Assembly (NCBI GenBank): GCA_030390025.1
Contig: CM059432.1
Coordinates: 35,900,001-35,964,000 of the forward strand
Reading direction: 5' to 3'
Length of the DNA stretch: 64,000 bases
Source of the DNA: Squalus acanthias
Lineage: Eukaryota
Part shown: piece after piece, positions 4,100 through 64,000 of the stretch
Layout: each line of letters begins with the position of its first letter
How positions within the stretch are numbered: the stretch's first letter is position 1
Notes under the pieces: model-generated
Seen by the model: the letters and a program-made list of their open reading frames with translations, nothing else
The model's database searches: none
What the model was told of the DNA's origin: nothing
Program-made: the position numbers and the translations under genes

Positions 4100-4226
4100 C
4101 AGACCCTGTGCCACCACTCAGACTGTGCAACAGTATGGCCCCACTGTAACTGTCCCGGCGTTCCACCTCTTTCCATGGTGCAGCGAAGCAAACTCTTGTC
4201 ATCCTCTGTCCGCAGTCCATGATGCC
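4100..4226 (-). pseudogene. tubz1: Zeta-tubulin-like gene, coding exon 4 (127 nt), frameshifted as assembled
   Basis: Acceptor tttacag|GG and donor TCTG|gtgagc. The incoming phase-1 frame reads (G)HHGLRTEDDKSLLRCTM; the tubulin-homologous KEVERRDSYSGAILLHSLSGGTGS(G) is in a different frame from ~4172. Confidence 0.8.
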
Positions 4227-8152: not shown

Positions 8153-8214
8153 CAAAAGCCCAGTTGTTGCCTCTTCCTCTCAAGCCAACTAAAATGTTTG
8201 AATCTCTGAATGAC
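8153..8214 (-). CDS. tubz1: Zeta-tubulin-like gene, coding exon 3 (62 nt)
   Basis: cgttaaag|G TCA TTC...TGG GCT TTT G|gtgaga encodes (G)SFRDSNILVGLRGRGNNWAF(G), the tubulin GNNWA loop. Phase 2 in, phase 1 out. Confidence 0.9.
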
Positions 8215-10862: not shown

Positions 10863-10958
10863 CCGGTCTTCACTTCCTGGAGCAATCTCCTCACTACTTT
10901 GGGCTCACTGTCCACACACAGGGTGCTCAGCTTCCCACTGGCTGTGTAAAATGGATAC
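10863..10958 (-). CDS. tubz1: Zeta-tubulin-like gene, coding exon 2 (96 nt)
   Basis: ttgttgcag|G TAT CCA...AAG ACC GG|gtatgc encodes (R)YPFYTASGKLSTLCVDSEPKVVRRLLQEVKT(G), with the tubulin VDxEPKV motif. Phase 2/2. Confidence 0.9.
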
Positions 10959-11004: not shown

Positions 11005-12015
11005 TAGAATCATAGAATGGTTACAGCACGGAAGAAGGTCATTCGGCCTGTTGAGCCCGTGCCGGCTCTCTGCAAGAGCACTTCAGCTAGTCTCACTCCC
11101 CCGCGCTTTCCCCGTAGCCCTGCAAATATCTTTCCTTTAGATACTTATCCAACTCCCTTTTGAAAGCAGTGATTGAAAATTTCTTTCCTTTAGATAATTA
11201 TCCAACTCCCTTTTGAAAGCCGTGATTGAGTCTGCCTCCACCACCCTTTCAGGCAGTGCATTCCAGATCCTAACCACTCGCTGCGTTAAAAAGTTTATTC
11301 TTATGTCGCCTTTGGTTCTTTTGCCAATCACCTTAAATCTGTGTCCTCTGGTTCTCGACCCTTCTGCCAATGGGAACAGTTTCTCTCTATCTACTCTGTC
11401 CAGACCCCTCATGATTTTGAACACCTCTATCAAATCTCCTCTCAATTTTCTCTGCTCCAAGGAGAACAACCCCAGCTTCTCTAGTCTATCAACGTAACTA
11501 AAGTCCCTCATTCTGGGAATCATTCTCATAAATCTTTTCTGCACCCTCTCTAAAGCCTTTGCATCCTTCCTAAAGTGCGATGCCCAGAATTGGACACAAT
11601 ACTCCAGTTGGGGCCGAACCAGTGTTTTATACAGGTTCATCATAATTTTCACACTTTGTACTCTATACCTCTATTCATGAAGCCCAGAATCCCGTAAGCC
11701 TTTTTAACTGCTTTCTCAACCTGCCCTGCCACCTTCAACAATTTGTTCAGACATAGCCCCAGGTCTCTCTGTTCGTGCACCCCCTTCAGGATTGTACCAT
11801 TTAATTTATATGTCCTCTCCTCATTCTTTCTACCAAAATGTATCACTTCACACTTTTCTGCGTTAAATTTCATCTGCCACGTGTTCGCCCATTTCACCAG
11901 CCTGTCTATGTCTTCCTGAAGTCTATCACTCTCCTCCTCACTGTTCACTATACTTCCAAGTTTTGTGTCATCTGCAAATTTTGAAATTGTGCCCTGTATA
12001 CCCACGTCCAAGTCA
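11005..12015 (-). mobile_element. CR1-clade LINE 3' end (RT C-terminus + tail)
   Basis: SKFADDTKLG, LVRPQLEYCVQFW, RTRGHRFK, VVRIWNALP; ATTCTATG-type tail. Confidence 0.9.
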
Positions 12016-13442
12016 TGTATGGTACTTGCATATTGTTAACTGAACACTAGATGGCCCCCTGAGGGGAGTAAGCACATTGTAGCAATGACACTCCAAGATC
12101 TCTCTTGTATTGCTTTTGTTGGGAAGTCAAAGGAAATAAAAATCAGGAGAGGTGTAAATCGGGCTGCCAATTCGCTATCGCCCGTTTTACACTATTGCAC
12201 AATGTCAAAATCTACCCAAACACGCCGCCATATATTGTACACACTGGGAAATAAACCATTCTGTGGTCTGGCAGAGAACAGATCCCGACCTCAAGCTGCT
12301 CCTGCAGTAATTTCATTCACTCCCTGCCAGCACATGCTGGATCTCGGAGCTGGGATTAAAAAACCCCTTGGATCTGCGGTGGAAAATGAACAAAGGACCT
12401 GCAGAGTTAACGGCACAGCTATCCTGTGGTCTACTCTGGGCGGCTTGCCATTTCAGTGCACTTACTGGAGTCATAACTGTCGTACTATCAATCACAGTGC
12501 TCGAACTACTGCTCCCTTCACTTCCAAGGCAGGAGGAAATGCATCAGAGAAAGCAGCAAGATCCTAGTCAACAAAGTAAAGAGCAGATTACATTCAGGAT
12601 TTGAATTTTTCAACTTCCTGTCCTTAGAGAAAGAAAAGAAAGAAAGAACTTACGTTTCTATAGCACCGTTCACAACCTCAGGACATCACAAAGCGCTTCA
12701 CAACCAATGAAGTACTTTTGAAGTGCAGTCACTATTGTAAACTGGGGAAACACAGCAGCCAATTTGCGCACTGCAAGGTCCCACAAACAGCAATGTGGTA
12801 CTGGCCAGAGACTCTGTTTAAGTGATGTTGGTTGCGAGCTAAATATTGCCCAGGACAGCAGGAGAACTCCCCTGCTCTCCTTCAAAATAGTGCTGTGCCA
12901 TCTTTTAAGTCCACCTGAGAGGGCAGACCCGAAACATGGCACCTCCGATAGTGCAGCACTCCCTCAGTACTGCACTGAAATACCAGTCGAGATTATGTGC
13001 TCAAGTCTCCGAATTGGGGCTTAGAACCCACAATCTTCTGACTCAAAGGTGAGAGTTCTACCACTGACACCAGAGCAACATACAAAACCGAGGGCAGGAA
13101 AATTCAGCTGGTCCATTGAGCCTGTCCTACTGGGTTGCAGTACAATCCCATGAGCACCAGAGGCCTTCGGGTACATCAATCAACTGGCCACTCTTCAAGA
13201 GTGAGCCTCGACCAGAGGTTCCCAAACTTTAATTATTGCCTACGCCCTTCCAGATCTACCAGCTGCCCGCGTACCCCTACCAGTATACAGGTTTAATATT
13301 TTAACCCCTTTAATGCCCAAGCATTGTACAAAATGTACAAATTATAATACACATAACAACTTAGTGTACAGTGATTAGAAGTGAGGGTTCTGTACGTCAT
13401 CATCTCTGTGTATCTGTGTTCTCATTGGCATATCGTGAAGTC

Positions 13443-19265: not shown

Positions 19266-21242
19266 ACATTTTTTTTTTGAAGTCCAATAAATTTTCTGCG
19301 TTCGGCTTATATTTTGGACATAATCTCAGGATTTCTCATGCAACATTTTAAGGACATCTATGCTGAGCTTTCACTTGGAAATGTACTGTTAATAAAGTGA
19401 CTGCCCCAGAACGCTGCACCGATCCTTTAGAGGCGACCTTCGGCCTCCTGCTGATGTTACCGCCGGAAAGAGCGCATTGCATGGGAGCTTCTGCGCTGCG
19501 CTCATTTAAATCAGCAGGCAACACCAAATACCGGTGCCACGGCTCACTGGAAGAACTCTTGCCTCTGAGTCAGAAGGTTGTAGGTTCAAGCCCCATTCCA
19601 GGGACCTGAGCACATAATCTAGGCTGATACTCTAGTGCAGTACTGAAGGAGTGCTGCACTGTCGGAGATTCCGTCTAGATGAGACATTAAACCTCTGAGG
19701 TGGACGTAAAAGATCGCATGGCACTATTCGAAATTGAGCAGGTGTCCTGGCCAACACTCAACCCTCAACAAACATCACTAAAACAGATTAAGTGGTCATG
19801 TATCTCATTGCTATTTGTGGGACCTTGCTGTGTGCAAATTGTCTGCTGCGTTTCCTCCATTACACAGTGACTACACTTCAAAAGTATTTAATTGGCTGTA
19901 AAGCACTTTGGGATCTCCTGAGGTCATGAAAGGCTCTATATAAATGCAAGTTCTTTCCTTTAAAGCTGCACCGGGCCGTGACTTTACTCTCTAGACCAGC
20001 GGATCATCCACTACCAAGGTTGCTCCTCGGCAGGTAATAAGTTCAGGAGTGATGGGGAATGGGCCCCCCCAGATTCCCTGTTCTTTCCTGCTGTGAAATG
20101 CCTTCTCTCAACTCCCAGATCACAAATCTTCACACGGAAGCCACCAGTCTGGTAACTGAGGATCATTCCACATTGTATATCCTTCCTTTTGAAGGACTGA
20201 ACAGAGAATTAATAACAGAGAATTAATAAGTCAGTCGGAAAAAATAAATCCCCTAACCATTGAAATGTCTGCTCCGTGCCAGACTTTGTTTCCCCAAGGA
20301 CTCCTGCTCTATTTTCAGGTTGGATTTGTTCCCAATGGAGCAAACAAGGAACTCCCCACATTCAATCCCAGTGGTTGGCTGCTTGGTGCACAGTTGACTC
20401 TCTACAACCAAATGGCAAGGCCTTGGTGGTGCCAATGGCCAGTCTGATTAGAATGAAAAGTCAATGCAGCTTCCTCTGGCTGTTTCTTTCCCCAATTTTT
20501 GTCCTCTCCTCTCGAAAGGAGATCCTAGCTGGGTACGATACCACATGAAATTTCCCATTCTTCATGGGTGAGGCTAGACAATGAGTGCCGACAGGCTAGT
20601 TGACGATGCGGGGCATCATAGCTGTGCCTGATCCTCTCTTCACCCAGCCAATAAACAGCAAAGGTCAATGGAGAACCATTAGGAGTGGGGTCCCTGGCTA
20701 ATTTCCCTCCACCCTAGCACAGGGCTAAATACAAGGCATACATAGAAAATAGTAGGTGGGGAGAAGACAGGCAGACACACAGAGTCAGAGTCAATTGTAC
20801 AGCCCCAGCTGCTGCTCTGGTGAGATCGGCTAACTCAGCACAGGTCGAAGTTCGAACCTGAAACCTTTTGATCTATGCAGCTTAGTGCTGCACCAGGTGG
20901 TACCTTTACTCATTAGCTCAACAGGGTACCAAATGGCAAGGCCTTGGTGGGGCCACTCCTACCTGCTCCAATCCCAATGAACAGTCTGATTAGAATGAAA
21001 AGTCAATGCAACATCGGAACATAGGAACAAGAGTTGGCCATTCTGCCCCTTGAGCCTGCGCCACCATTCGATTAGCCAATTAGATCATCGCTGTTCTGCA
21101 CCTCAACTCCATTTGCCCACCCTTTCTCCATATCTTTGATTCCTTGATACCCTTGCCCAGCAAAAAACTATTGATCTCAGTCTTGCAAGCTCTAATTGTC
21201 CCAGCACTCAGAGCCTTTTCAGCAACAGATGAGATCACTCAC

Positions 21243-21346
21243 CTGTCCACAGCGCAATTTGGAGCCTTTTCATTGGTAACCAGTTTCCAACATTCCTGTC
21301 CCACTTGATTGCCACACTGCCCGACCTGCAGCCAAATGGTGGACAT
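21243..21346 (-). CDS. tubz1: Zeta-tubulin-like gene, first coding exon (exon 21243-21348, ATG at 21346)
   Basis: ccttttcctctag|GA ATG TCC...GTG GAC AG|gtgagt encodes MSTIWLQVGQCGNQVGQECWKLVTNEKAPNCAVD(R), with the tubulin QVGQCGNQ motif. The strong acceptor implies an upstream non-coding exon. Confidence 0.92.
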
Positions 21347-23899
21347 TCCTAGAGGAAAAGGAGAAGATGCTGGTCATTTCCCACACTTTTTAGGGCGAAT
21401 CCCAGTGAACAACGTACGTAGGAAATAGTACGGAATAGGGGAGGAGAGAAACAGATACAAAAGCCTCGATGTTAACCTATCCCGCTCGGTGGCAAAGGGA
21501 CAAGTTCAAGACAGACGTCTGCTTTGCAACCTGACTGATTTTACTCTCCATTGACTTCAAAATTGGGCAGGGTCTAAAATGGGTGTCCGACTCAAACCCA
21601 CCCCATTCCCACTGGGCGGGTTACGTTAAAATTGAGAGTAGACAATAAGAGACAGACAGTGAGTGAAAGAGACAGAGAGACATACACACACAGACAGATA
21701 ACCAGATCTGTTTTAGTGATGTTGGTTTAGGGATCAATATTGGCCATGACACTGAGGAGAACTTCCCTGCTCTTCTTTGTATAGTGGTCATGGGATAGCA
21801 GACAGGGCATTGGTTTAACATCTCATCTGAAGGATAGCACATCCAACAATGCAGCACTCTCTCAGTACTGCACTGAATTGTCAACCTGGATTATGTGCTT
21901 ATAATACTCCTGTGAAGCGCCTTGGGACGTTTTATTACATTAAAGGTGCTATATAAATACAAGTTGTTGTTGTTGTTTAGTCTCTGGAGTGAGGCTTGAA
22001 CCTATGACCTTCTGACTCAGAGGTCAGACTGCTACCACTGAACCTCGGGGGGGGGAAAGCACCATGAAAACCCAAATGTGTTCACTAATGCCCTTCAGGG
22101 AAGGGAACCTGCCACTCCTACTGCTCCAATCCCACACTACGTGGTTGACTCTTAATGGCCTCTGAAGTGGTCTAGCAGTCCACCACCTCCTTCTCAGGGC
22201 AGTAAATGCAATCTTCATACATTGCCCCTATCGGAAAACAAATTTAAAAAAGCTCAGGAGGTTACTAATAACGTACGTTAGACAGATTTCCCCCACCCCA
22301 TTATACTTGAGGACTTGGGGCAAAAAATGTCCCCTGGAAACTCTTTGTGATTTCTTTAATGTTGCAACCATCCACTACCACATCCATGAGAGCCTAGATG
22401 GTGAGTGTTGGTACCACAGTCAGAGAGAGGTTGTTCTTGTTGTATCTTATATGGAAAAAAGGCGGGTAAATGGAGTTGAGGTACAGAGAAGCCATGATCT
22501 AAGAAAATGGCAGAACAGGCTCGATGGGCTGAATAGCCTCCTCCTGTTCTTGGAAAACAGTGTGAAGCAGCAGAGGGATTCTCAGGCTGGTTAACAGTCT
22601 GACAGGCCACGACGTGAACACTGCTTCCTTGGCCATAACTATCTTTATACCAGACGATTGGGTGGTTAGGCCTTTATGGCGGGAGCATTTTACGGGCTCC
22701 CACAACCCATACGATGAAGGGGGGGCCAGCGACAGCCACCAGACATGAGTATCCCACTGAATGTCAACCCACTATTTAGAGCTGGAGCTCCAGTCGCCAG
22801 GACTGTCTGGGGTTCAATTTTTTTTTATTCGTTCCTGGGATGTGGGCGTCGCTAGCCAGGCCAGCATTTATTGCCCATCCCTAACTGCCCTTGAGAAGGT
22901 GGTGGTGAGCCGCCTTCTTGAACCGCTGCAGTCCGTGTGGTGAAGGTACTCCCACAGTGCTGTTATGGAGGGAGTTCCAGGATTTTGACCCAGCGACGAT
23001 GAAGGAACGGCGATATACTTCCAACTCAGGGTGGTGTGTGACTTGGAGGGGAACTTGGAATCCTGCACCTTCTGACTTAGAAGTGGGAAGGGTACCACTA
23101 AGCCAAGTATCACTCCCCCAGGTAGGTGAAGGGTACTAAGGCAGGAGAGTCAGTAACCAGAGGACTCAGATTTAAAATAATTGGCAAAAGAACCAGAGGG
23201 GCGATGAGGATAATTTGTTTTACGCAGAGTTGTTATAATCTGGAATGCACTGCCTTAAAGGACAGTGTAAAGCAGATTCCATAGCAATTTTCAAAAGGGA
23301 ACTGGATATATATTTGAAAAGGAAAATTTTTCAGGGCTGTGGGAAAAGAGCAGGAGAGTGGGACTAATTGGATAGCTCTTTCAAAGAGCCGGCACAGTCA
23401 TGATGGGTTGAGTGGCCTCCTTCTGTGCTGTAAAATTCTAGGATTCAACTGTGTCAAAGGTCTGGGGGAGTCTGAAAGCTGTTTAACTTTCTGCTGTCTC
23501 CAAAAACTCTGAACACACCAGCAATGCACGTGTTATCATACTGTACAGTGTTATACATTAATTCAATTGGTCACAGTCTGTTGCCTGGGTATTGTATCAG
23601 AGAGAAAAAAACTGAAAGTGCCTGGCGGTTAAGGAACGATTCATGAAATTGCCTCTCAATATCCCAATCTGCATCGCTCCAAATGGACAAAGTTCGTGTT
23701 GAACCCGATTCATTAAAAAAAAGTTGCAGGAAGAGTTTTAAAAAAATGATTTATAAGCCGAATTAACGATCCAAGATTCCTTTTGTTCCCCAAGTTATTG
23801 CCAAGTGTGTTTTTTGAGTCATGTCTGCTACCGATATTTTTTTAAATAGTTTCACCTTTGAGAAAAAAATCAGAACAAGAGTAATTCCAAAAACAAACA

Positions 23900-24339
23900 C
23901 ACGACTAACTGCGGAGAAACAGACACAAACCTGACGATTTTCAGCAGTAACTCCGCATGAATAATAATAAAATGTCTCTTGTTGTGTAAGTGTCACAAGC
24001 CGGCCAGACACTTTCAATTGGCCCGGGCAACTGTCAGTTTCACAGGAAAGTCCCAGTCACTTTAAAAAAAACTCTTCTTGTTTCATTTCCGTTTGTTACG
24101 GAGCGACGTACATCGTCCCAGTGTTCTTTCTCGAGGCTAAAAAAAATACACACACACACATATATATATAATGTGTGCTTAAAACAAGAGAGAAACCAGA
24201 AAGAAAAAAAATACAAATTAAAATGGCTTTAAATGTAAAAAATTCCGTTCCTTTCTGATGAAAGATTTTTTTTCACGTTGCAATTTTTTTTTGCAGAGGC
24301 AAAACAGGGATTAAAAAAACGATCGTGTGCCTGGTGTTT

Positions 24340-24371
<32 letters not shown>

Positions 24372-24765
24372 GGGTACAATAATATATAAATATATAAGGA
24401 AGGATGTTTTAGAGAGAAGGGCTTCGTGTGTGGATTCCACACGGCGACCGGCGGCGGAGCAGCGAGCATGGAATGAAGCTGAAGGGCAACATTTGTATCG
24501 GATCGGAAGAGAGAATTGATACAAAAAGGTTCGATTTTGGAACGTCGCGGGCGCCGGGATTCTAATTTCGGAACGTCGAGTTGCCACTCGCTCCGGGAGG
24601 AAAAGTCTCAACGTTCCAAACGAAGGTGGAAAATAAATTTACAAAGGAGGAAATTTACACGCCGGCTCGGAGAATCGTTGGGAGATTTTTTTTTCTCGTT
24701 GTTTTATTATTATTTTTTCTTTTTAATGCTGAATGTTTTGAGTAAAATAGCGCCGCTCGGTGAAG
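23900..24765. promoter_or_regulatory. Repeat-free, CpG-enriched putative bidirectional promoter / 5' UTR region between the tubulin gene and SETD2
   Basis: High CpG density at 24420-24800 against a CpG-poor background. Lies between two divergent first coding exons; candidate minus-strand donor CAG|GTTTGT at 23931/23930. Confidence 0.6.
24340..24370. repeat. (TA)n(CA)n microsatellite in the promoter region
   Basis: Direct reading of the sequence. Confidence 0.9.
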
Positions 24766-24800
24766 ATGGGGGACGCTTATGACCCAGAGCACCCGACCGA
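24766..24800 (+). CDS. setd2: Histone H3K36 methyltransferase SETD2, coding exon 1
   Basis: AAG ATG G...ACC GA|gtaagt encodes MGDAYDPEHPT(E), matching recalled human MGDFYDPEHPTP. In-frame TAG upstream at 24748; phase 2 donor. Confidence 0.92.
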
Positions 24801-27800
24801 GTAAGTGATCAAAATATCTCATTATTATCACTTAATTGATTTATTTAATTACTACCCGGTAGGTTTCCAGTGAAACTTACATTTAGGAAATGAAATGTGA
24901 TTTGGGTGGGAGGGGGAGAGGGTGCAAAAAATAGGAGTTTGGACTGTTTTGGGAAGCAGTGCCCCAGGGGAAGGTTTTGAAGGGCTGGAGCCCAGGCCCC
25001 TGTGATGGTCACTCATCCCTCATGTTTTAATCCCCCCCACTCCCACTCCTCCCTATTTTGGCTCCAGCCATTTCCCAATCTTGTGTAGCTCGAAGGTACA
25101 ATAAATGGCGGGTAAACTTTGAAAGGGGGAGGATAAAACACACACAGGATAGCTTTGGGGAAGGGAGACACAAGGCCTGAGATCCACGGCGCTCGCGTAC
25201 TTGTAATGGGCGGTCGGTGAAGCTTGCGGCACCGAAAAGAAAGGGGGAGGGGGGAGGTAGGGCCCTGAGAGCAGCCTCGGTTAGATTTTAACTGGACAGT
25301 GGTACAGAGGGAGGGAGAATGGTGGGTGGAGGAGGAGGTGAACACACAGAGAGAGGGGTTGGTTGGAGAGGGAGATAAACAGGGTGGCTCTCTTACTTGG
25401 CAAAGTGCTGGTGTTTGGTATAAAACACTCAGCAACTGGCCCCATCTCATTGCACTGAACATAATGGGGGCAGAATGAAGGGCAATAAACAGACTGGGCA
25501 ACTTAGCCAGCCAAAAACCAAATACACAGTGGCCATCATTTACCCAAGAAGACAGTTGGATGCCATCTTGAGTCATTTCAAGCTGTTATCACAAACTCTT
25601 ATAGCCATGAGGGAGAAAATTCATGACAAATTTTATAGTAAACCACGTGCAAAGTATATTTTTGAAGAAAAACCCTTTCGCTTGCAAGTCTGCTAGACTG
25701 CGGTGACCTCTGTAAATCTCCACGTGCATAACAGGAAGAATTTTACTTACTTAAAAATGAAACAAAAAAATTCAAATGAGGAGGGAGCACTTTCTGTAAT
25801 TAAAAACCAGTACTCAGGAGTAGGAAGTCCTTTTATTTATTTTCTAAGCTGGAATTTGACATACTGCATATATTTAAATTGAGGATCCCGCAGAATATTC
25901 TGGAGATACGCAGCAGGTCAGTCTCGGAGAGGTGGCTTCATGGTGCAGGTGAGGACCCTTCATCAGATATGAACGGGGAGGCACCAGAAACATTGACTTG
26001 CTTTTTTTATTTGCTCCTTCAGATGCTGTCTGTCCCGATGTGGATTTCTAGCAATTAATATGTTTGTTTTGCTTTCATGTGCATTTTTTTCTCTCGTCGC
26101 TTGAGTTGCACTTCAGTTATGGAATAACAAAAATTAATCAGCACAGGCCCCCCCCCCCCCCCCCCCCCCCTGAGTTTTCTCCTGAAGAAAAGCACTTGTG
26201 TTTATATAGGGCTTTTCACCACCACAGGATGTCCCAAAGTGCATCATAGCCAATGAAGTACTTTTGAAGTGTAGTCACTGTTGTATTGTAGGGTAATGTG
26301 GCAGCCAATTTGCGCACAGCAAGGTCGTACAAACCAAATAATCTGTTTGGTGACGTTGGTTGAGTGATAAATATTGGCCAGGACACTGGGGAGAGAGAGC
26401 TCCCCTGCTCTTTGAATAGTGCCTTGGGATCTTTAACATCCACCTGAGAGGGCCACTGTTTAACATCTCGGCCAAATGATGGCACCACTCACAGTGAGAA
26501 CTTCCTCAGTACTCCATTGCTGTCTTGGTGTATGAGCCTAGATGGTGGTTGTTTCCGAGTATTCGACCATGCAGAGTATCCCAGCCGAGTCCAATGCTCA
26601 TCTTGTCCTCACCTGGTATCCCCAAACATGCTGCAGCTTCCATCAGGAGTAGCTTGATCTTGATTATTAGTGGGTAAGGTAGTGTAGTGTTTATGTTAGC
26701 AGATTAGTAACCCAGAGGCTTGGACTAATAATTTAGAGAACATGAGTTCAAATCTCTCCATGGCATTTTGAAAATTTGAAGTTAGTTTGAACAATCTGGA
26801 AATAGAAAGCTGGTATCAGTAAAAGTAACCATGAAGCTGTCAGATTGTTGTAAAAACCCAACTGCTTCACTGATGTCTTTTAGGGAAAGAAACCTGCCGT
26901 CTTTACCTGGTCTGATCTATATGTGACTCCAGTCCCACACCAACTCATAACTGTGCACTGCAGCCAGTCAGTTGCATCAAACCGCTACAAACACAGACTT
27001 CAGCGGCTCAAGAAGAAGGGCCACCACCAACATTGAAGGATGGGCAATAAATGCTGGCCTTGCCCACATCGTTTATTAAAAAAAAAAGGAACAGGAGCCC
27101 TGGCTGATTTGTTTCCCTCCCTTCCCTTCTGCCCATGGACACTGAAGTCAATTACCTTTTGGCTACAATCAACCTACTCCGCGTAGATTGGGATCATGAG
27201 TTTGGGTCCTTCTGGGCTGTATTGCTCAGTATTAAACCATGCTGTGCCTTGATCATCTAAGGAATGTGGGGAAGTTGAGGAATTCCCTTGGGGAGAAGGT
27301 ATGGTCGATGAGGCTATATTTTAAGCAAGGTGTTTTTAATACTGCTGTTAGGAAATTGCAAAGAATGAGATACTTTGAGGTTAATATTTGGTGTTGGCCT
27401 TTGTATGGTTGCCATTGGTTTCTTGACCAGTGTCTTTCTCTCTCTGTTATATCATGCAGTGTTATCGGTGGAGTATCCAGCTACATTCACTTTCACCCAG
27501 CAATGCTATTGTAGACTGCGGCCGTTGAAAATTGAGTTGTATCTTGCGAGGGCATGTTAAGCTAGAGTGAAGTACCACAACGACTTGCGTTTATATAGCA
27601 CCTTAAATGTATAAAATGTCAGAAGGCGCTTTACAAGAGGGACAGATACACTGAGCCTAGAAGGAGAGCTTATGATGGGTGATTGAAGGCTTGGTGAAAC
27701 GATAGGCTTTGAGAAAGAAAGACTCGCATTTGCATAGCGCCTTTCACCACCTCAGGATGTCCCAAAGCGCTTCACAGCCAATGAAGGACTTTTGAAGTGT

Positions 27801-40752: not shown

Positions 40753-43700
40753 CGTGAGGCCTTAACTCAGAATGTGTCACTGGGAAGGGGAGACAGTGGG
40801 AGGTGGTGGGGAGAGAAAAGAGTGTCAGCTTAGCTCACTTGGAAACACGGTCACCTCTGGGTCAGAAGTCATCCCTCCTATCGGGAGCTGCACGTGTAAT
40901 CAAGATTACAGTGGAGTAAAGCTTCATAGGGTCTTGCCATGTATGAGAAGGAAGGATGGAGTTTTAGTAGTAGCTCATTAAACGAGGAATATTGCCAAGG
41001 AGGAAGAACTCAGTGATTGAATGGTGCCAGCAAATCATTTAACGCCCACCTGAGAAGCAGACGGAACTTAGTTGGGTGTCAGCCGTGGCTCAGCGGTCGC
41101 ACTCTCGCCTCTGAGTCAGAAGGTTGTGGGTTCAAGCCCCACTCCAGAGACTTGAGCCTAAAATCCAGGCAGGCTGGACTGTCCGAGGTGCCAACTGTCT
41201 CCTCAGGTGGAAGTAAAAGATCCCATGGAACTATTTGAAGAAGAGCATGGGAGTTCTTCCATTGTCCTGGCCAATATTTATCCCTCAACCAGCACCTAAA
41301 ACCGAAGTTCTGGTCATTTATTTTATTGATGTTTATGGGCTCTTGCTGAGCGCAAATTAGTTGCTGCATTTCCGACACTTCAAAAGTACTTCATTAGCTG
41401 TAGAGTGCTTTGGGACGTCCTGAGGTCTCTTTGTTTACCAGCTCTTCTGAAGGAGAACACCTCTGAAAATGCAGGATTCCTTCAGTACCCCACTGTCGTG
41501 CAGTCTCGATAACAGTTGGCAGAGGTGCCACTTTTCAGATGAACCATTAATCCTAAGTCCTGACAACACTCATGGGTGGATGAAAGAGAAGAATGCAAGA
41601 TTGGTGTCCTCATCCTTCATCCAAAACCCATCTTGTGAAACCAAACCGTAATGGGAGTGAATCACAGGATATATTAAGCGTAACCAATGTACCATTGAAT
41701 AAATTAAACTGGAGGATGTTCAATGAGGGCTTGCCAGAGCTCTGAAATCTGTTGAAGCTGCAGTTTATTTTTAAGAATATTTATTAATATGCTTCTGGAA
41801 AGTCATTAGAACCCTTTGGTAAATTGAGAAGTCTAGACTTAAAAATATGTTTTTACCAAAGTTGCGCTCTCAAGATAATTACAGATGAGGGAGGCCATTC
41901 GGCCCATCTTAATTCATCAATCCAGAGAAATCCTATAGTCGTTTCATTGTAGCATCCGATTGATTCTTGAGTGTTTCCGGAATTTTTGCCTCCACCATTA
42001 TCTGGGAGTCTATTCCAAGCGTTGACCCCTTTGTGTGACGAAGAACTTTCTGATATCAGTCCTCAGTTTGCCTTTTACTAGTTTGAGCCTCAGTCTGTGT
42101 GTAGCAATTTTGCTGGTTCCCAGTAGGCTCCCTGTTTGTTTATACACAGGACATGAGCTTTTATCTCAGCTGAAGCAGAACCAGTTATGGGTTGGGTTCA
42201 CAACGGTCAAACCGGTTTACCTGAATGAGATTTCCTCCGCTGGATAATATCACAGCTCACTAATGGTAACAGGGTATTGGTTGGGAGCGTGGTGTGCGAG
42301 GGAGCTGGATTAATATCAGTAGAGATAGCCAGTGACACAGGGTGCTGGGGGGAGGGGTAACTGAGTGACAATGTGATAGAATAAAACCACATCATTTTTT
42401 TTTTAATGCCCCATGCATCCGGGTTTGCTAGCAGCAGCGTCCAGAAAATGAATCTTTAAATTCCTGAACACTCCAGGACAATCCAATAATGGTTATGTTA
42501 CTGGGCTAGTAATCCAGAGGCCTGGACTGATGATCTGGAAAGATGAGTTCAGATCTCACCACGGCAGCTGGGGAATTTAAATTCAGTTAATTAAATAATC
42601 TGGAATTTAAAAAAAGCTCGTTTCAGTAATGGTGACCATGAAACTGTCGTAAGATGGTCGTAAAAACCCATCTGGTTCACTAATGTCCTTTAGGGAAGGA
42701 AATCTGCCGTCCTTACCTATATGTGACTCCAGACCCACCGCAATGTGGTTGACTCTTAACTGCCCTCTGAAATAGCAGCTCACCACCACCTTCTCGAGGG
42801 CAATTAGGATGGGCAATAAATGCTGGCCTTGCCAGTGACGCCCACGTCCCGTGACCGAATTTAAAAAAAAAAAATCCTGGAGGGTTGGCAAACCCTTTCT
42901 TTAGACGTGGTCCAGGTACGGGTGGAGGACAGGTATGACATGAAACGCTCGCGGATTGTGTCAACGAGGTGATGTCTCGCACAAGGCTTTGCCTGGGAGG
43001 ATAATCAAGCAGGCAGATAACGGCGGTTCCACTGTAATATTCACTTTGTCGTCCGATTTAAATTAAAAAAAATAACTTTTCTTTCTTTCCTTCTCCCAAG
43101 GGCGCATGCCTCTCCTCACCCTCCATCACCCACGAGGGAAGGTTGGACGGAACTGCAGATGTCGCCTGGACCATCAACGCCTCTCCACGTTCAGTCCACA
43201 GGAGACGTGCTTGTTGTGGGGTGAGACAGACAACACTCTCTCTTCTTGCTCTCGCTCTCGCTTTGGAAGTCCAATCGGGTGTTCCAAGTTTAAGGAATCC
43301 AGTGCTGTATGGAAAGAGGGGTGGAGGGCGGGAGAGAAAGAGTGCTTGTGTATATGTTTCTGCCATTAGATATCTTTAAGGCCGTTTAACAGCAGTTGTC
43401 CCTATTTTTACTTGCAAAAATAGGGGTGTAGTTCTCTAGTCAACCTTGGGGAACACCTGCATCAACCTGGCCGACATCGGCAAAATCCTTCCAAGTATTG
43501 AAGCCTAGGCTTGATGAGAAGGGGAAATAACACCAGCCACTTGGATGTCATTTGATAATGGCTATATAGTGACCTGTTTTGGTATTGGACTAATTTATTA
43601 ATCTATCTATTTAATATATTAATTAATCTGTCCACTTCTGGTCAACTTTTTCTATTTATAAATTCTTATATCCACATTTATTGTAAAAAATTACCCATGT

Positions 43701-50345: not shown

Positions 50346-52249
50346 AACCCAGTAATGGTGATGGGAATTCAAGGACACCTTGTGCAATTCTTCTGGCATC
50401 GAAATATATATTTACCACCTTCTGACCCAGCCATCTCTGCGATTGTCGGATCACACCAGCTGAAAGTTAAATGAGGCGGCGGATGTAAATGGTGAGGTGA
50501 TGCAGGATGTATAGACCAGGCTTGTTTGCATTCATGCAGCCTATAATGTTCCAGTTCAAAAATCCTCTTACCATTAGCTCTCTGACGCTGTGTGAAATGG
50601 ATGTGTTTTCAGAGCAATGGGTGCACTCAGGCTTCAAAAATTCACAGACTTGCAGTGTGATTGAGCTTCTGCTGGAGCTGCGATAAGATTGGAATCTGGT
50701 TCCTGTCAGTCATCTCGACTTTCTACCCACCCCACCATACAATGCACAACCGGTGCACGAGTTGACTTGAAATGTGATATCAGGCCATGAGTGTCCTTGG
50801 GCAAAGTGCAAGGATTGGAGCAGTGCAGTCTGACATATTTCCCCCCCCCCCCTGTCTGTCTGGCTCTCTTGCCGTGTGTGTGTGTGTTACTCTTTCTTTC
50901 TGTCTGTGTATGTGTTTCTCCTGTTGTCTGTCTCTCCTCTCTCTCGCTCGTGTTGTGTGTCTCTCTCCCCCCTCTCTTTTTATCTGACTCCCATAACTTG
51001 TTACGTTGGCCTTCTCCAACATTTTGTATTTTGCCTATTTTTTATTTTATTCATTCATGGGATGTGGGTGTTGCTGGCACAGCCGGCATTTATTGCCCAT
51101 CCCTAATTGCCCTTGAGAAGGTGGTGGTGAGCCGCCACCTTCAACCGCTGCAGTCCGTGTGGTGAAGGTCCTCCCACATTGCTGTTAGGTAGGGAGTTCT
51201 AAGATTTTGACTCCGTGACGATGAAGGAACGGCGATGTATTTCCAAGTCCTGCCACATCCAGTCGTGAATGGTGGCGGACCATTAAACAACTAACGGGGG
51301 GGAGGGAGGAGGCTCCATGAATAACCCCCATCCTCAATGATAGTGGAGCCCAGCACGTGAGTGCAAAAGACAAAACTGAAGCGGTTGCAACCATCTTCAG
51401 CTAGAAGTGCCGAGTGGATGATCCATATCGGCCTCCTCCTAAGGTCCCCACCACCACAGAAGCCAGTCTTCAGCCAATTCGATTCCCTCCACGTGATATC
51501 AAGAAATGGCTGAGCGCACTGGATACAGCAAAGGCTGTGGGTCCCGACAACATCCTGACTGTCGTGCTGAAGACTTGTGCTCCAGAACTAGCCGCGTCTC
51601 TAGTCAAGCTGTTCCAGTACAGCTACAACACTGGCATCTATCCGACAATGTGGAAAACTGCCCAGGTATGTCCTGTCCACAAAAAGCAGGACAAATCCAG
51701 CCCAGCCAATTACCGCCCCATCAGTCTACTCTCAATCATCATCAAAGTGATGGAAGGTGTCGCCGACAGTGCTATCAAGCAGCACTTACTCACCAATAAC
51801 CTGCTCACTGAAGCCCAGTTTGGGTTCCGCCAGGACCACTCGGCTCCAGACCTCATTGCAACCTTGGTCCAAACATGGACAAAAGAGCTGAATTCCAGAG
51901 GTGAGGTGAGAGTGACTGCCCTCGACATCAAGGCAGCATTTGACCGACTGTGGCATCAAGGAGCCCTAGTAAAACTGAAGTCAATGGGAATTGGGAGGGA
52001 AAACTCTCCACTGGCTGGAGTTATACCTAGCACAAAGGAAGATGGTTGTGGTGGTTGGAGATCAATCATCACAACTCCAGGATATCGCTGCAGGAGTTCC
52101 TCAGGGCAGTGTCCTAGGCCCAACCATCTTCAGCTCCTTCATCAATGACCTTCCCTCTATCATAAGGTCAGAAGTGGAGGAAGAGGCTTGTAAACGGAGC
52201 AGGCTCGAGGGGCTGTATGGCCTACTCCTGCTCATATTCTTATGTTCTT

Positions 52250-54979
52250 ACGTAATGCTGCCAAAAAGAGTAGTAAGCCTGAGGATTAGGAGGATTTTAG
52301 AATGCATCAAAGAAGGACCAAGAAATTGATAAAGAAAGGGAAAATAGAATATGAGAGTAACCAAGCAAGAGACATTAAAAACAGACTGTAAAAGCTTCTA
52401 TAGGTATGTAAAAAGGAAAAGATTAGCAAAAGTAAATGTCGGTCCCTTACAGGCTGAGACAGGAGAAATTATAATGGGGAATAAGGAAATGGCAGAGAAA
52501 TTAAACATACTTTGGGCGCGATCTTGCCAGCCCTGGGGAGGCGGGTTTGGAGGCTGGACTGCCGGGAAAATGGCAGAATCTGGGGGCGGGTGCCCAACCC
52601 GCCTCCATGCCACCTTCCCAGGAGGCGGGTAGCCGACCCGCGCCGTGTCCTGTCTCCTGGAGGTGGGAAGGGGATTACAGCCACTTAACTGCCTGTTAAC
52701 AGGTAGTTAACAGGCAGTTAAAAGGATTATCCCCATTTTGCCACCAGAGGCGCGGGCTTCCCGACATCTGGAAACCCCGCCAGGGTCACCGAGGTGAGCA
52801 GTGGGTCTGCAGGGGTCGGAGGGGTGCAAAAGTGCGCTGTGAAGGTAAGTGATGGGTGCAAGTGTGAAGAGGTAAGTATGTGAGGTGAGTGGAAAGTGTT
52901 AGAAAAAGTTTACTTGCATTTGTTTCTTCCTGCAGGTTTCAACAGTTGGGGATGCGGAGAGTCTCGCATCTCACCGGCAGAGATGACAGATGGCTGCTGC
53001 ATTCTCCGATGCAACAACCATCTAATTTCTGCTAAAGAAAGAGGTTTGATGAGTCTTGAATACAAGGACTCATCAAACAACATAGAATGTCAGTGTTTGA
53101 CAGCTTCACAGAGCTGTCAAACGATGACAATTCATCTGTCAAAAATTGGTCCTTAATTGGCCTGTTAAACCCGCTGGGCGGGCTTAACCAGGTCAATCAA
53201 GGGAAAATAGCGTGGGTTGGCCACAAGTCGATGGAGGCGGGACTGAAACCCGACGAGCAACAGTCGCACCCCCATTGGCAAAATCACCCCCTTTGTGTCT
53301 GTCTTCACGGAAGAAGACGCAAAAATCTTCCCAGAAATAGTGGACAACCAAGGGTCAAGCGAGAATGAGGAACTGAAAGATATTAGTATTAGTAAAAAAG
53401 TAGTACTAGAGAAATTAATGGGACTGAAAGCGAATAAATCCCCTGGACCTAATGGCCTACATCCTAGGGTTTTGAAAGAGGTGACTATAGAGATAGTGGA
53501 TGCATTGATTGTCATTTTCCAAAATTCCATAGATTCTAGAACGGTTCCCGCGGATTGGAAGGTAGCAAATATAACCCCACTATTTAAGAAAGGAGGGAGA
53601 GAGAAAACGGGGAACTACAGACCAGTTAGCCTGATATCAGTAGTAGGGAAAATGCTAGAATCTGTTATTAAAGACGTGGTAACAGGGCACTTGGAAAATA
53701 ATAATACTCATGTATGAAAGAGAAATCACGTTTGACAAATCTGTTAAGAGTTTTTTGAGGTTGTAACTAGCAGAATAGATATGGGGAAACCAGTGGATGT
53801 GGTGTATTTGGATTTTCAGAAGGCATTCGATAAGGTGCCACACAAGATTATTAAACAAAATTAGGGCTCATGGGATTGGGGGTAATATACTAGCATGAAT
53901 TGAGGATTGGTTAACGGACAGAAAACAGAGAGTAGGAATAAACTGGTCATTTTCGGGTTAGCAGGCTGTAACTAGTGGGGTGCCGCAAGGATCAGTGCTT
54001 GGGCCTCAGCTATTCACAATCTACATCAATGATTTGGATGAGGGGACCAAATGTAATATATCCAAGTTTGCTGATGATGCAAAGCTGGGTGGGAATGTAA
54101 GTTGAGGAGGATGCAAGGAGGCTTCAAGGGGATATAGACAGGCTAAGTGAGTGGGCAAGAACAGGGCAAATGGAATATAATGTGGAGAAATGTGAAGTTA
54201 TCCACTTTGGTAGGAAAAATAGAAAAGCAGAGTATTTTTTAAATGGTGAGAGATTGGGAAATGTTGGTGTTCAGAGAGACCTGGGTGTCCTTGTACACGA
54301 ATCACTGAAAGTTAACATGCAGGTACAGCAAGCAATTAGGAAAGCAAATGGTATGTTGGCCTTTATTACAAGAGGATTCGAGTATAAGAGTAAAGATGTC
54401 TTACTGCAATTATATAGGGCCCTGGTGAGACCACACCTGTAGTATTGTGTATAGTTTTGGTCTCCTTACCTAAGGAAGGATATACTGTACTTGCCATAGA
54501 GGGAGTGCAACAAAGGTTCACCAGACTGGTTCCTGGGATGGGGGGATTGTCTTATGAGGACAGATTGAGTAGACTAGGCCTATATTCTCTAGAGTTTAGA
54601 AGAATGAGAGGTGATCTCTCAAAATTCTTACAGGGCTTGACAGGGTAGATGCAGGGAGGACGTTTCTCCTGGCTGGGGAGTCTAGAACCAGGGGTCACAG
54701 ACCAAGAATAAGGGGTCGGCCATTTAGGACTGAGATGAGAAATTTCTTCACTCAGAGTGTGGTGAATCTTTGGAATTCTCTACCCCAGAGGGCTGTGGAG
54801 GCTCAGTCGTTGAGTATATTCAAGAGAGATCGATAGATTTTTGAATATTAAGAGAATCAAGGGATATGGGGACAGTGCAGGAAAGTGGAGATGAGGTAGA
54901 TCATCAGCCATTATCTTATTGAATGGCGAAGCAGGCTCGAAAGGCTAAATGGCCTACTCCTGCTCCTATTTCTTATGTT
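52250..54979 (+). mobile_element. CR1 LINE (RT + tail) nested in the second-family LINE
   Basis: KSPGPNGLHPRVLKE, NYRPVSL, KFADD, LVRPHL; tail GGCCTACTCCTGCTCCTATTTCTTATGTT. Confidence 0.88.
52514..53291 (+). mobile_element. PIF/Harbinger-like non-autonomous DNA transposon nested in CR1
   Basis: 15-bp imperfect TIRs GGGCGCGATCTTGCC / GGCAAAATCACCCCC and a 3-bp TTT duplication; removing it restores CR1 TACTTTGTGTCTGTCTTC (YFVSVF). Confidence 0.7.
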
Positions 54980-60768: not shown

Positions 60769-63700
60769 GTCAAGTCGGAGAATCCATTGGTATTGAGTGT
60801 TCTCAAGGGGCAAGTGACAAAAGGCTGTAGTCGATTTCTACCTAAGGGCACCAAGGCAAAAGTCAACCTGGAGGACCAAGGACGGCAGAAGGTGTCTTTT
60901 ACCTTCAATGTAACAAAGACCTTACGAAATAGGTTCCAAAGTGCCATTGGGACTGAGCCGGATGAAGTCAAGATTCCACCCCTGACGTTGCCTCCCATTT
61001 CTGTGAAAGGGAGCCAGGACAGTAAAAGTGACACTGATTCGGCCGATGCTACAGAGATTGCTACCTCACCGCCCAAATCCAAGGTAGAGTGGAGCAAGGT
61101 GCACTTCAAGAAGAAGCATCTCAACGATGCAGCCAAACCTGTGAGTTTGTCTGACAGGGAACCGTGTAGCTCGTCGGTGGAGGAACCTGTGGATGTAGCA
61201 GTCAAGAAAGATTCTACAGGAGGAAGTGAAACTGTGACAAAGGTGGCTGTTGAACCGAAACCGTCAAATCAGAATCTCAGTACATCCCACATTGGGAAGG
61301 GTGATAACTTGGAGGAGTTCAAGAGTGTCTCCTCATCTTCTGAAAACGATGAGCTTAGGAAGGTTACTCAGGCAGAAGAAGCAATGCAAGTACAATCAGC
61401 TGGCTCGGAGTCTGAGGGGGATTTATTAAGGAAGTCGCCTAGTTTGAAGTCGCAGGACACGAAAAATGCTGAATCTGATCGAGATGTTAGGAAAAATCCA
61501 ATGGCTTCCAAAATCGATGAGGTAGAAAAGGTTTCCTCTCATTCCAAGTCTGAGCGAGATAAGAGGAGCAGCGGTCGTTCCAAGTCTGAGCGAGATACGA
61601 GAAGGACTTCGTCCCGGTCAAAGTATGGGAGAGAGGAAAGAGTCAGTTCATCTCGATCTCGCTCCGATAGAGATTCAAGGGCACCCTCTTCTTACTCGAA
61701 GTCAGACCGGTCGAGGACCTCTTATTACCGTGAGAAAGACAGAGGATATCGTAGAGGCTCCCCTTACTCAGAAAGGAGCAAATCTTCTCGTTCCAAATTG
61801 GGATCTGATTTAAGAGACGCTTCCTCTTGTTCAGATTCCGAAGAAGATTCCAGAAGGTATCATCCCAGATCAAATGACTTGAGAAGGACTTCATTGCATT
61901 CTAAATCCTATAGAGACTTGAGGAAATACCAGTCACGGTCGGATAGAGATCTGAGGGCAACTTCGTCGTGCTCTGAATCAGAGAGAGAGACTAGAAGGAC
62001 TAAATCTAAGTCAGATAAAATATCCAAAACATCAACGTCTTGTTACGAGTCAGAAAGCTCTAAAATTAATTCTCCTGAACCAGAATTAGATTCCAGGAAA
62101 TTGTCCAAATCGGACAGTCATTCAAAGATATCTTCATACCATTCAAAGTCATCGATTTCTTGTCATAAACCAGAGGTAGTTAAAACAAACTCGTCTGACC
62201 CGGAATTGGACTGCAGGAAAATCTCCAAGTCTGATGGTCATTTGAGGACAACTTCATCTCATTCCAAATCTGTAACCTCTTGCCATGAGGTAGCAGTAAA
62301 GAAGGACTCCCCAGAACCAGAAATGGACTCGAGGAAATGTTCTAAGCTGGACAGTAACTCAAAGACAATTCCATCTCATTCCAAGTCATCCACTTGTTGT
62401 GGAATGGAAGCAATTCAAGGGGACTGCCCAGAGCTAGAATCAGATTCCAGGAGAAGTCACAAGCCTGATATTAATTCAAGGATATCCCCATTACATTCTA
62501 AATCAACTACTTGCTGTGAAATAGAAGTAGTTAAAATGGACTCTTCCGAACCAGAATTGGACTCGTGGACTAACAGTAGGTCAGACAATAACTCAATGGT
62601 AACCCCAACTCGCTCTAAGTCAACTACTTGCTATGAAATGGAAGTAGTTAAAATGGATTCTGCAGGGCCAGAATTGGACCCATGGACTAACAGTAGGTCG
62701 GACAAGAACTCAATGGTAACTCCATCTCATTCTAAGTCGACTACTTGCTATGAAATGGAAGTAACTAAAATGGACTCTTCTGAACCAGAACCGGAATTGG
62801 ACTCGTGGGCAAGCTGTAAGTCAGATCGGCAGTCAAGGATAACTACATCTAGTTCCAGATCCCATAAGATGAGGACTTCGCCCCCTTATACATCTGACAG
62901 GGAATTAAGAAGGACTTCATGCTCTGAGTCAGAAGATGAATTCAGAGAGGTTCCTGAACTGCACAAGTCAGGAACAATGCAGACAGTTTCTAGATCAGAT
63001 GAGATTTGTTCCTCACTTGATCACCAATCGGACAATTATGTAAGCACCTCACCGTATTCTACATCAGATTTACCGAGGACGTTCTGCCACTCCAGACTCG
63101 CTGTTGAAATAGCCGGACCTTCAGCTGGTTCTAAATTAGATGGACCTTTGGCAAAAGTTTCATCTTGCTCAGAATCAGATGAAGAACTGAGATCTTCACC
63201 TCATTGCGAGGCTGATTTGACGGTTTCACCTCGTTCCCTATCAAATGAGTTGCTGTCCCCGCCTCATTTCATAACTAATGATTTGAAAACCTCACCTCAT
63301 TCCAGCCCAGATGAGGTTAAGTCTTTGGCCCACCCAAAACTGGAGGAATTCAGCACTTCGCACTACACCGAGACGGAGGAGATTTTGGCCTGTCCCAAAC
63401 CGGACGAGTCCATCTCTGTGCCCCGCTTGTATTTAGATGCAGCTTGGACCGTTTCGGCTGATGCTGAAAGTTGCACAAGAGACGCAAAACATCAAGGCGA
63501 AGAGTCAACAGAAAATAGGGATGTGGATAGTCGAAGGGAGCAACACACCAGTGAAGGAGATGGTTCTGAATCAAAAAATGATAGACTGTTTCACGATCCA
63601 AATAGCTTTAACAATTGCAAAAGTAAACCGAATGTAGTGCCTGGCGACCAAAATTGGGATTCATTTGAGAAAGTTAGATTGTACACAGATTTGGCCAGCC

Positions 63701-64000
63701 ACCTTACTTTTGAAACTAAGGAGTCTTCAGAAGTGAAGACTGAAAGTCCATCAACAAATAACGAAGAAACCTCTTTCTCTGCTAGACCAGATAGTTCTGT
63801 TAAAGTGGAACCAGAGCAGTCGATGGAAATTTCTGAAGATGAGGAAGAGACCGATGAAGACTTGGCTGTGGAGGTGGCCGAGAGGCCACCGCCTTTGAGC
63901 ACTGCCGACCTGACGAGCTCAAATGAAGCGGAACACAGTTTACAGAATTACAAAACCAAGTCTTACTGTGACAGCAGCTCTATGAAGGCAGAATACAACA
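60769..64000 (+). CDS. setd2: SETD2 giant exon 3 (partial, >1077 codons, runs off the window)
   Basis: gttgcag|GTC AAG; VKSEN...SRFLPKGTKAKVNLEDQGRQKVSFTF...SPPKSKVEWSKVHFKKKHL matches recalled SETD2 SRFLPKGTKTKVNLEEQGRQKVSFSF and SPPKSRVELGKIHFKKHL. An RS/RD-rich block follows, and I found no stop up to 64000. Confidence 0.95.
62023..62853 (+). repeat. Coding tandem repeat, 7 x 117-123 nt (39-41 aa), inside SETD2 exon 3
   Basis: Units start at 62023, 62143, 62263, 62380, 62497, 62614 and 62731; consensus approximately SKSTTCxExEVVKxDSxEPELDSxxxSKSDxxSxxTPSH. Confidence 0.9.

Follow-up and report, generated by a model that had tools for sequence, protein, structure and literature searches.

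A broken zeta-tubulin gene head-to-head with an intact SETD2 gene in Squalus acanthias, flanking a CpG-rich zone that is likely a bidirectional promoter

We examined a 64,000-nucleotide (nt) stretch of the 3.7-Gb Squalus acanthias genome (G000:C8:35,900,001-35,964,000, hereafter the window) in which a broken gene for the centriole protein zeta-tubulin lies head-to-head with an intact gene for the chromatin enzyme SETD2. The pair is real and old, its head-to-head layout belongs to a known kind, and one partner is dead. We consider it likely that the CpG-rich zone between the two genes is an ordinary bidirectional promoter, that this arrangement is ancestral to jawed vertebrates and that it has been kept for the needs of SETD2 and not for a joint function of the two proteins.

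As an original prediction made from the letters of the window had stated, the two start codons are divergent and about 3.4 kb apart: the zeta-tubulin ATG is at minus-strand position 21,346 and the SETD2 ATG at plus-strand position 24,767, giving a spacing of 3,421 bp. The former opens the N-terminus MSTIWLQVGQCGNQ..., with a Pfam Tubulin match at an E-value of 7.8e-6, and the latter encodes MGDAYDPEHPTE, an N-terminus shared with four of the seven printed annotated cartilaginous-fish SETD2 proteins. The acceptor that had been claimed for the tubulin ATG exon was also found, with a pyrimidine tract and a TAG ending 2 nt upstream of the ATG, as was the single CpG-rich zone, which is the strongest in the window, spans 23.6-24.95 kb and lies between both ATGs. 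The ratio of observed to expected CpG (CpG o/e), taken in 400-nt windows, peaks at 1.66 at 24.2-24.9 kb and exceeds 1.0 nowhere else in the window, and across the surrounding 464 kb it reaches at least 0.9 in only 11 of 926 1-kb windows, two of which fall in the zone between the ATGs. The zone is nonetheless GC-poor (34-47% GC), and positions 23,480-24,130 are single-copy in the assembly. With their divergent orientation and shared CpG-rich zone, the two genes are laid out as a bidirectional pair would be. Two other CpG-rich zones were noted outside the window, one at the last exons of SETD2 (G000:C8:36,013,501-36,015,000) and one approximately 170 kb past the window (G000:C8:36,135,501-36,138,500), which is likely the next promoter. 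The features between the two genes are as follows.

23,600-24,950, no strand: CpG-rich, GC-poor zone, likely the shared divergent promoter (CpG o/e, copy number)
24,379-24,801, plus strand: SETD2 exon 1, with the 5′ untranslated region (UTR) from 24,379 or earlier, the ATG at 24,767 and the donor after 24,801 (X18 contig)
23,519-23,584, minus strand: putative 5′ UTR exon, upstream in the tubulin gene, bounded by an acceptor at 23,584 and the donor CTG/GTGTGT at 23,519; its orthologue is the N-terminal extension of a Heterodontus model
23,931, minus strand: candidate donor CAG/GTTTGT of the original prediction, possible end of a further upstream exon (7/9 consensus matches, equal to three other sites)
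24,095-24,107, minus strand: 13-mer that resembles an X-box (RFX) and adjoins an ETS-like core, a lead only (pattern fitted post hoc)

The 5′ end of SETD2 was mapped with a 5,894-nt contig of the RNA-like run X18, which matches 24,379-24,801 with no differences and exits at the SETD2 donor; its first 37 letters, beside a skipped simple repeat, are unplaced. On the tubulin side, the 14-residue extension of two Heterodontus zeta-tubulin models matches 23,558-23,517 on the minus strand with 11 of 14 residues identical and a score of 61, as high as which none of 264 background pieces scored. This internal 5′ exon and the mapped 5′ end of SETD2 (23,584 and 24,379 respectively) are 795 bp apart and, because the exon at 23,584 has an acceptor, the first exon of the tubulin gene should lie nearer still to SETD2, with a predicted start at approximately 24.1-24.3 kb. 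The donor at 23,931 fared less well than its prediction, being no better than three other sites and having no RNA-like cover, which was absent from 23,458-23,981 in all four runs (the labelling of runs as RNA being a guess); the supported donor is that at 23,519. It is probable that a single unmethylated island drives SETD2 to the right and the tubulin gene to the left. Of the co-regulating bidirectional promoter that had been proposed, the shared promoter itself is likely, given the CpG-rich zone and 5′ exons within approximately 0.8 kb, whereas the functional co-regulation is not supported.

Weighing against a shared promoter are that the exon at 23,519-23,584 is known from a gene model computed for a different species, that the contigs show neither start nor strand, that no contig joins the CpG-rich zone to the tubulin ATG exon among the joints listed, and that this ATG exon has no cover in X10 or X17, both of organism A (nor has it any in X18). 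Some of this would suit divergent neighbours with separate promoters, in which the tubulin gene has a cilia-specific element of its own, starts in the region of 23.6-23.9 kb and only borders the island of SETD2, and the same can be said of the 0.8 kb between the end of the mapped tubulin exon and the mapped 5′ end of SETD2, and of the CpG o/e peak, which is on the SETD2 side; the lack of an island-to-tubulin joint among those listed points the same way. However, the acceptor of the 23,584 exon places the first exon nearer SETD2, and X19, from a species with an intact W20 codon, has some short cover between 23,982 and 24,243 (assigned to neither a strand nor a gene), so that we regard separate promoters as unlikely and retain the shared island. 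As to the X-box, the pattern has three matches in the window against 0.23 expected and is readable in 3 of 17 distinct N-terminal extensions of zeta-tubulin models (shuffled mean 0.085), but the patterns were written after the sequences had been seen, two of these three extensions come from frogs related to each other, and in the window only one of the three matches is near a promoter. The Hyla and Ranitomeya models share a 17-residue N-terminal extension with VTTVT, and this can be taken for a conserved 5′ UTR that contains an RFX X-box.

The conservation of the two neighbours, a check for which the original prediction had asked, was seen in both sharks and amphibians. In seven of the ten species compared (Heptranchias, Cetorhinus, Chiloscyllium punctatum, Xenopus tropicalis, Nanorana, Hyperolius and Geotrypetes), the accession numbers or locus tags of zeta-tubulin and SETD2 are within 20 of each other; the locus tags are consecutive in C. 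punctatum (chiPu_0009515/6) and X. tropicalis (XENTR_v10015795/6), and both genes are on one 103-kb scaffold in Nanorana. The head-to-head arrangement was likely inherited from the jawed-vertebrate ancestor. Counting against this, the two genes of Hemiscyllium, Carcharodon and Spea are on the same chromosome-size contig with numbers 275-940 apart, and accession order shows adjacency and carries no strand. The model extension of C. punctatum, tried as the antisense of the SETD2 5′ UTR, was rejected, as 16 of the 264 background pieces scored as high, and so, on the same grounds, were the lizard and caecilian extensions (126 and 52 of 264 respectively); the orientation in other species is therefore not established by these extensions.

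Another explanation of the pair is that it has been kept for function, with zeta-tubulin and SETD2 co-regulated from one promoter because centriolar or ciliary tubulin is methylated by SETD2. The genes are neighbours across the whole span from sharks to amphibians, SETD2 methylates K40 of alpha-tubulin according to the available part of one source (PMC12838686) and KIF9, the third gene in the row, encodes another microtubule protein. In contrast, zeta-tubulin lacks the alpha-tubulin K40 loop, being 15 residues shorter there, and has no conserved lysine at this site (K in the window, R in Heptranchias and A in Xenopus). In addition, the tubulin gene is dead here and, in the accessible text of PMC4202323, absent from placentals, whereas SETD2 persists; moreover, divergent promoters within 1 kb are common, involving 11% of human genes in the part of a review that was available (PMC10887517). 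As zeta-tubulin is without the K40 loop, as SETD2 outlives it and as such promoters are common, we find functional co-regulation distinctly improbable, and the enzyme-substrate story looks like coincidence. A bidirectional promoter of the ordinary kind, kept for SETD2, is the reading that we prefer.

The identity of the tubulin gene as zeta-tubulin was established by comparison of protein sequences. In a tree of 18 rows (gamma- and epsilon-tubulin not included), the window tubulin groups with the Xenopus laevis ‘zeta tubulin L homeolog’ (NP_001082326) with a support of 100/100 and stands apart from delta-, alpha- and beta-tubulins; Heptranchias is its neighbour, with weak support (82/83), in both trees that were made, and the proteins of the window are most similar to those of sharks. 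It is 82-88% identical with shark zeta-tubulins, 54-59% with those of other vertebrates and 22-29% with delta-tubulins. Mapping of the shark orthologues gives ten coding exons, which begin at 21,346 and extend to 31.3 kb past the start of the window; their borders are given below.

21,243-21,348, minus strand: ATG exon of the zeta-tubulin pseudogene, with 2 nt of UTR and codons 1-35, C in place of W20, the acceptor tag at 21,351-21,349 and the donor gtgagt
10,863-10,958, minus strand: coding exon 2 (96 nt, length intact; orthologue mapping)
8,153-8,214, minus strand: coding exon 3, 62 nt long, with the motif GRGNNWA and an AAG acceptor (orthologue mapping)
4,100-4,226, minus strand: coding exon 4, frameshifted by an 11-nt deletion near 4,172 (orthologue mapping, read contigs)
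G000:C8:35,868,692-35,891,490: coding exons 5-10, 8.5-31.3 kb beyond the window start (orthologue mapping)

Three of the acceptors are AAG, namely those of exons 3 (window 8,214), 7 (G000:C8:35,887,109) and 10 (G000:C8:35,868,927). A delta-tubulin identity is ruled out by the fully supported zeta clade, and the tree likewise contradicts the database name ‘tubulin delta chain-like’ as a family label, which all of the shark zeta-tubulin orthologues found carry. Vertebrate zeta-tubulins are indeed widely mislabelled in public, as ‘tubulin delta chain-like’, ‘beta chain-like’ or ‘gamma chain-like’, and the Atlas family label ‘tubulin delta chain’ covers zeta-tubulin without separating it. A separate delta-tubulin gene is present on another contig (C11:674.5-715.8 kb), with no stop in its matched exons and 68-90% identity with a protein of the cluster named ‘tubulin delta chain’ in rays. 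A further tubulin gene, on C3454, looks like epsilon-tubulin; no delta, epsilon or zeta entries were among the PDB matches for the C11 and C3454 genes. In the zeta-tubulin model of Carcharodon (XP_041046601), exon 2 is missing, the QVGQCG motif shows the change G9R and the GGTGSG motif contains a Y; this gene may be decaying, unlike that of Cetorhinus, which looks intact. No zeta-tubulin of a ray, sawshark or chimaera was among the best 120 of 484 matches, perhaps because of losses and perhaps because of annotation gaps; the same database contains SETD2 proteins of rays, sawshark and chimaera (seven taxa) and ray delta-tubulins (five taxa).

The zeta-tubulin gene of the window is a dead unitary pseudogene. 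When it is set against that of Heptranchias, six lesions are seen, spread over four exons and one intron: exon 4 is shorter by 11 nt and exon 8 by 13 nt, both with a frameshift, exon 6 is shorter by 27 nt in two in-frame gaps, ctaact stands in place of the donor after exon 5 (8 of 9 donors being intact) and exon 10 has a stop, TGA in YLH*YW. When spliced at the orthologous sites, the reading frame meets its first stop after residue 136. The locus encodes no full-length zeta-tubulin, a protein of the basal foot in multiciliated cells. The deletion in exon 4 is present in contigs of X1, X2 and X6, i.e. in two DNA samples of organism A and in organism B. The organism A contigs over exon 4 show no differences across 404 and 543 nt, and that of organism B, a single contig with a depth of 3.6, has 15 base differences and one 9-nt intronic gap; five of its base changes are in exon 4 and give four residue changes, two of which alter the signature motif of tubulins from SGGTGS to NGGTGP. 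No second zeta-tubulin copy was found in the assembly, where 86 of 86 candidates were scored and all matches above 50% identity lie at this locus. What had been raised conditionally as a ‘dead zeta-tubulin’ is thus zeta-tubulin by the tree and dead by its two frameshifts, lost donor and stop.

Less favourable to a dead gene are the read support, which was checked for one of the six lesions (the exon 4 deletion), and the slight decay by substitution: 5 of 125 strictly conserved columns are changed in the window, compared with Heptranchias (3 of 130), Heterodontus (4 of 131) and seven other sharks (0-1), and its branch of 0.055 is not longer than that of Heptranchias (0.071). Since the exon 4 deletion is common to organisms A and B, the loss would be older than their split and, since few conserved columns are changed and the branch is short, it is probably young relative to the split from Heptranchias. 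That the tubulin is functional and that the breaks are assembly errors or alleles, as its 88% identity with Heptranchias, its short branch and its eight intact donors might suggest, is barely credible and is already largely refuted by six lesions over four exons and one intron, by the presence of the first of these in two samples and a second species and by the open exons of the adjoining SETD2.

SETD2 itself is intact here as judged by orthologue mapping, the Heptranchias protein (AWS, SET, WW and SRI domains) mapping exon by exon onto the locus over residues 13-2752. The exons are open through the SET, WW and SRI regions, and the stops shown fall in intron overhangs. The window holds only three pieces of the 5′ part of the gene, exon 1 and the two listed below, and the SET, WW and SRI parts are 6-50 kb beyond it.

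43,102-43,221, plus strand: SETD2 second coding exon, approximate borders (88% to Heptranchias SETD2 13-54)
60,769-64,000, plus strand: large exon of SETD2, whose open frame continues past the window to 65,481 (orthologue mapping)

Within the large exon, Ser/Cys-rich internal repeats were noted at window positions 61,996-62,853. On the other side of the tubulin gene is a kinesin gene on the plus strand, one exon of which matches KIF9 with an E-value of 2.5e-21 compared with 1.9e-10 for the next kinesin; a Pfam KIF9 domain is found 55-57 kb before the window, and the last recognized KIF9 exon is approximately 10 kb from the tubulin stop. The gene order is KIF9 (plus), zeta-tubulin (minus) and SETD2 (plus), with KIF9 and the tubulin gene tail-to-tail. 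The introns of both genes of the pair contain many fragments and copies that we take to be long interspersed nuclear element reverse-transcriptase-like sequences and short interspersed nuclear elements respectively (window 11,140-12,035, 51,405-54,440 and others).

The sequence runs offer a partial view of transcription at the dead gene. X17 has contigs at 24,104-24,274 and 24,462-24,685 with no strand assigned, X10 has one unspliced 162-nt contig across exon 4 and the next intron, which may be DNA, and no recorded RNA sample is listed as carrying exon 4. In X19, the ATG exon is covered over 21,241-21,349, as read from table distances. In the mechanism that we propose, both genes would fire from the one unmethylated island, with the first tubulin exon at approximately 24.1-24.3 kb, where the RFX-like box near 24,100 (again a lead only) would have given the tubulin side a ciliary bias. 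Delta-tubulin would have made zeta-tubulin dispensable, a buffering in line with the rule of the ZED module, in the available part of PMC4741028, that delta or zeta may be lost but not both. After the loss, selection on the promoter of SETD2 would preserve the divergent start, and the leftward transcript could then persist as a non-coding RNA. As SETD2 needs the island, we put the chances of such persistence in this lineage at about even.

The human counterpart of this slot holds KIF9-AS1, which is antisense to KIF9 by name, and so corresponds to the strand of the tubulin gene in the shark, and which we presume to start head-to-head with SETD2. The slot (SETD2, KIF9-AS1 and KIF9) has the same neighbours as the shark zeta-tubulin gene, and the genes around SETD2 in 3p21.3 include CCDC12, NBEAL2, NRADDP, KIF9-AS1, KIF9 and others in the accessible part of PMC5770597. 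KIF9-AS1 may be a fossil of the lost zeta-tubulin gene, whose slot it fits by position only. A precedent in the available text of Hezroni et al. 2017 (PMC5577775) is the long non-coding RNA (lncRNA) LOC102606465, which is divergent from DPH5 and sits in the slot of a lost gene. In the portions of its four supplementary files that were available, there was no match for KIF9, SETD2, tubulin or tubz, a search in which rows with Ensembl ids only would be missed, and there was none in Table S4, to the same extent, for KIF9-AS1, KLHL18, NBEAL2 or CCDC12. It is a tentative idea, with the odds somewhat against it, that KIF9-AS1 is the living fossil of the placental zeta-tubulin gene, still fired from the promoter of SETD2, that the shark locus is an independent replay, at an earlier stage, of the same change from gene to lncRNA and that zeta-tubulin was lost several times in cartilaginous fishes (in this lineage and possibly in rays, sawshark and chimaera). 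If this were true, the repeated losses would be natural knock-outs for the building of basal feet without zeta-tubulin.

We found no published account of a loss of zeta-tubulin in sharks, and its loss in this lineage is apparently unreported. Nor did we find a published link of zeta-tubulin with SETD2 or with KIF9-AS1; the novelty of the synteny is uncertain, as Turk et al. 2015 may show it. The sixth tubulin family now has a genomic address, between KIF9 and SETD2, at which any vertebrate genome can be checked for its loss and the loss dated. Moreover, a concrete candidate origin is named for a human disease-associated lncRNA, KIF9-AS1. In addition, a shark lineage without zeta-tubulin offers a second vertebrate test of whether delta- and zeta-tubulin are interchangeable.

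Three known systems can be compared with this locus. The gene resembles the zeta-tubulin of the ZED module (tubz1) in forming one clade with Xenopus zeta-tubulin, in being single-copy here and in that its loss was tolerated with delta-tubulin retained; the known vertebrate loss is that of placental mammals, whereas here the loss is an independent one in a shark lineage with the ten coding exons still recognizable. With the fossil lncRNAs, as far as the available text of PMC5577775 describes them, it shares a gene lost in placentals and a slot taken by a lncRNA that is fired divergently from the promoter of a neighbour, but here a non-mammal is at an early stage of the same decay, and the likeness of KIF9-AS1 is positional only. 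Finally, the locus resembles the CpG-island bidirectional promoters of vertebrates, in the accessible part of the review (PMC10887517), in having mapped 5′ ends less than 1 kb apart, one CpG-rich zone and one housekeeping partner, and differs from them in that the island is GC-poor (34-47% GC), that one partner is dead and that the 5′ ends are those given by contigs and gene models.

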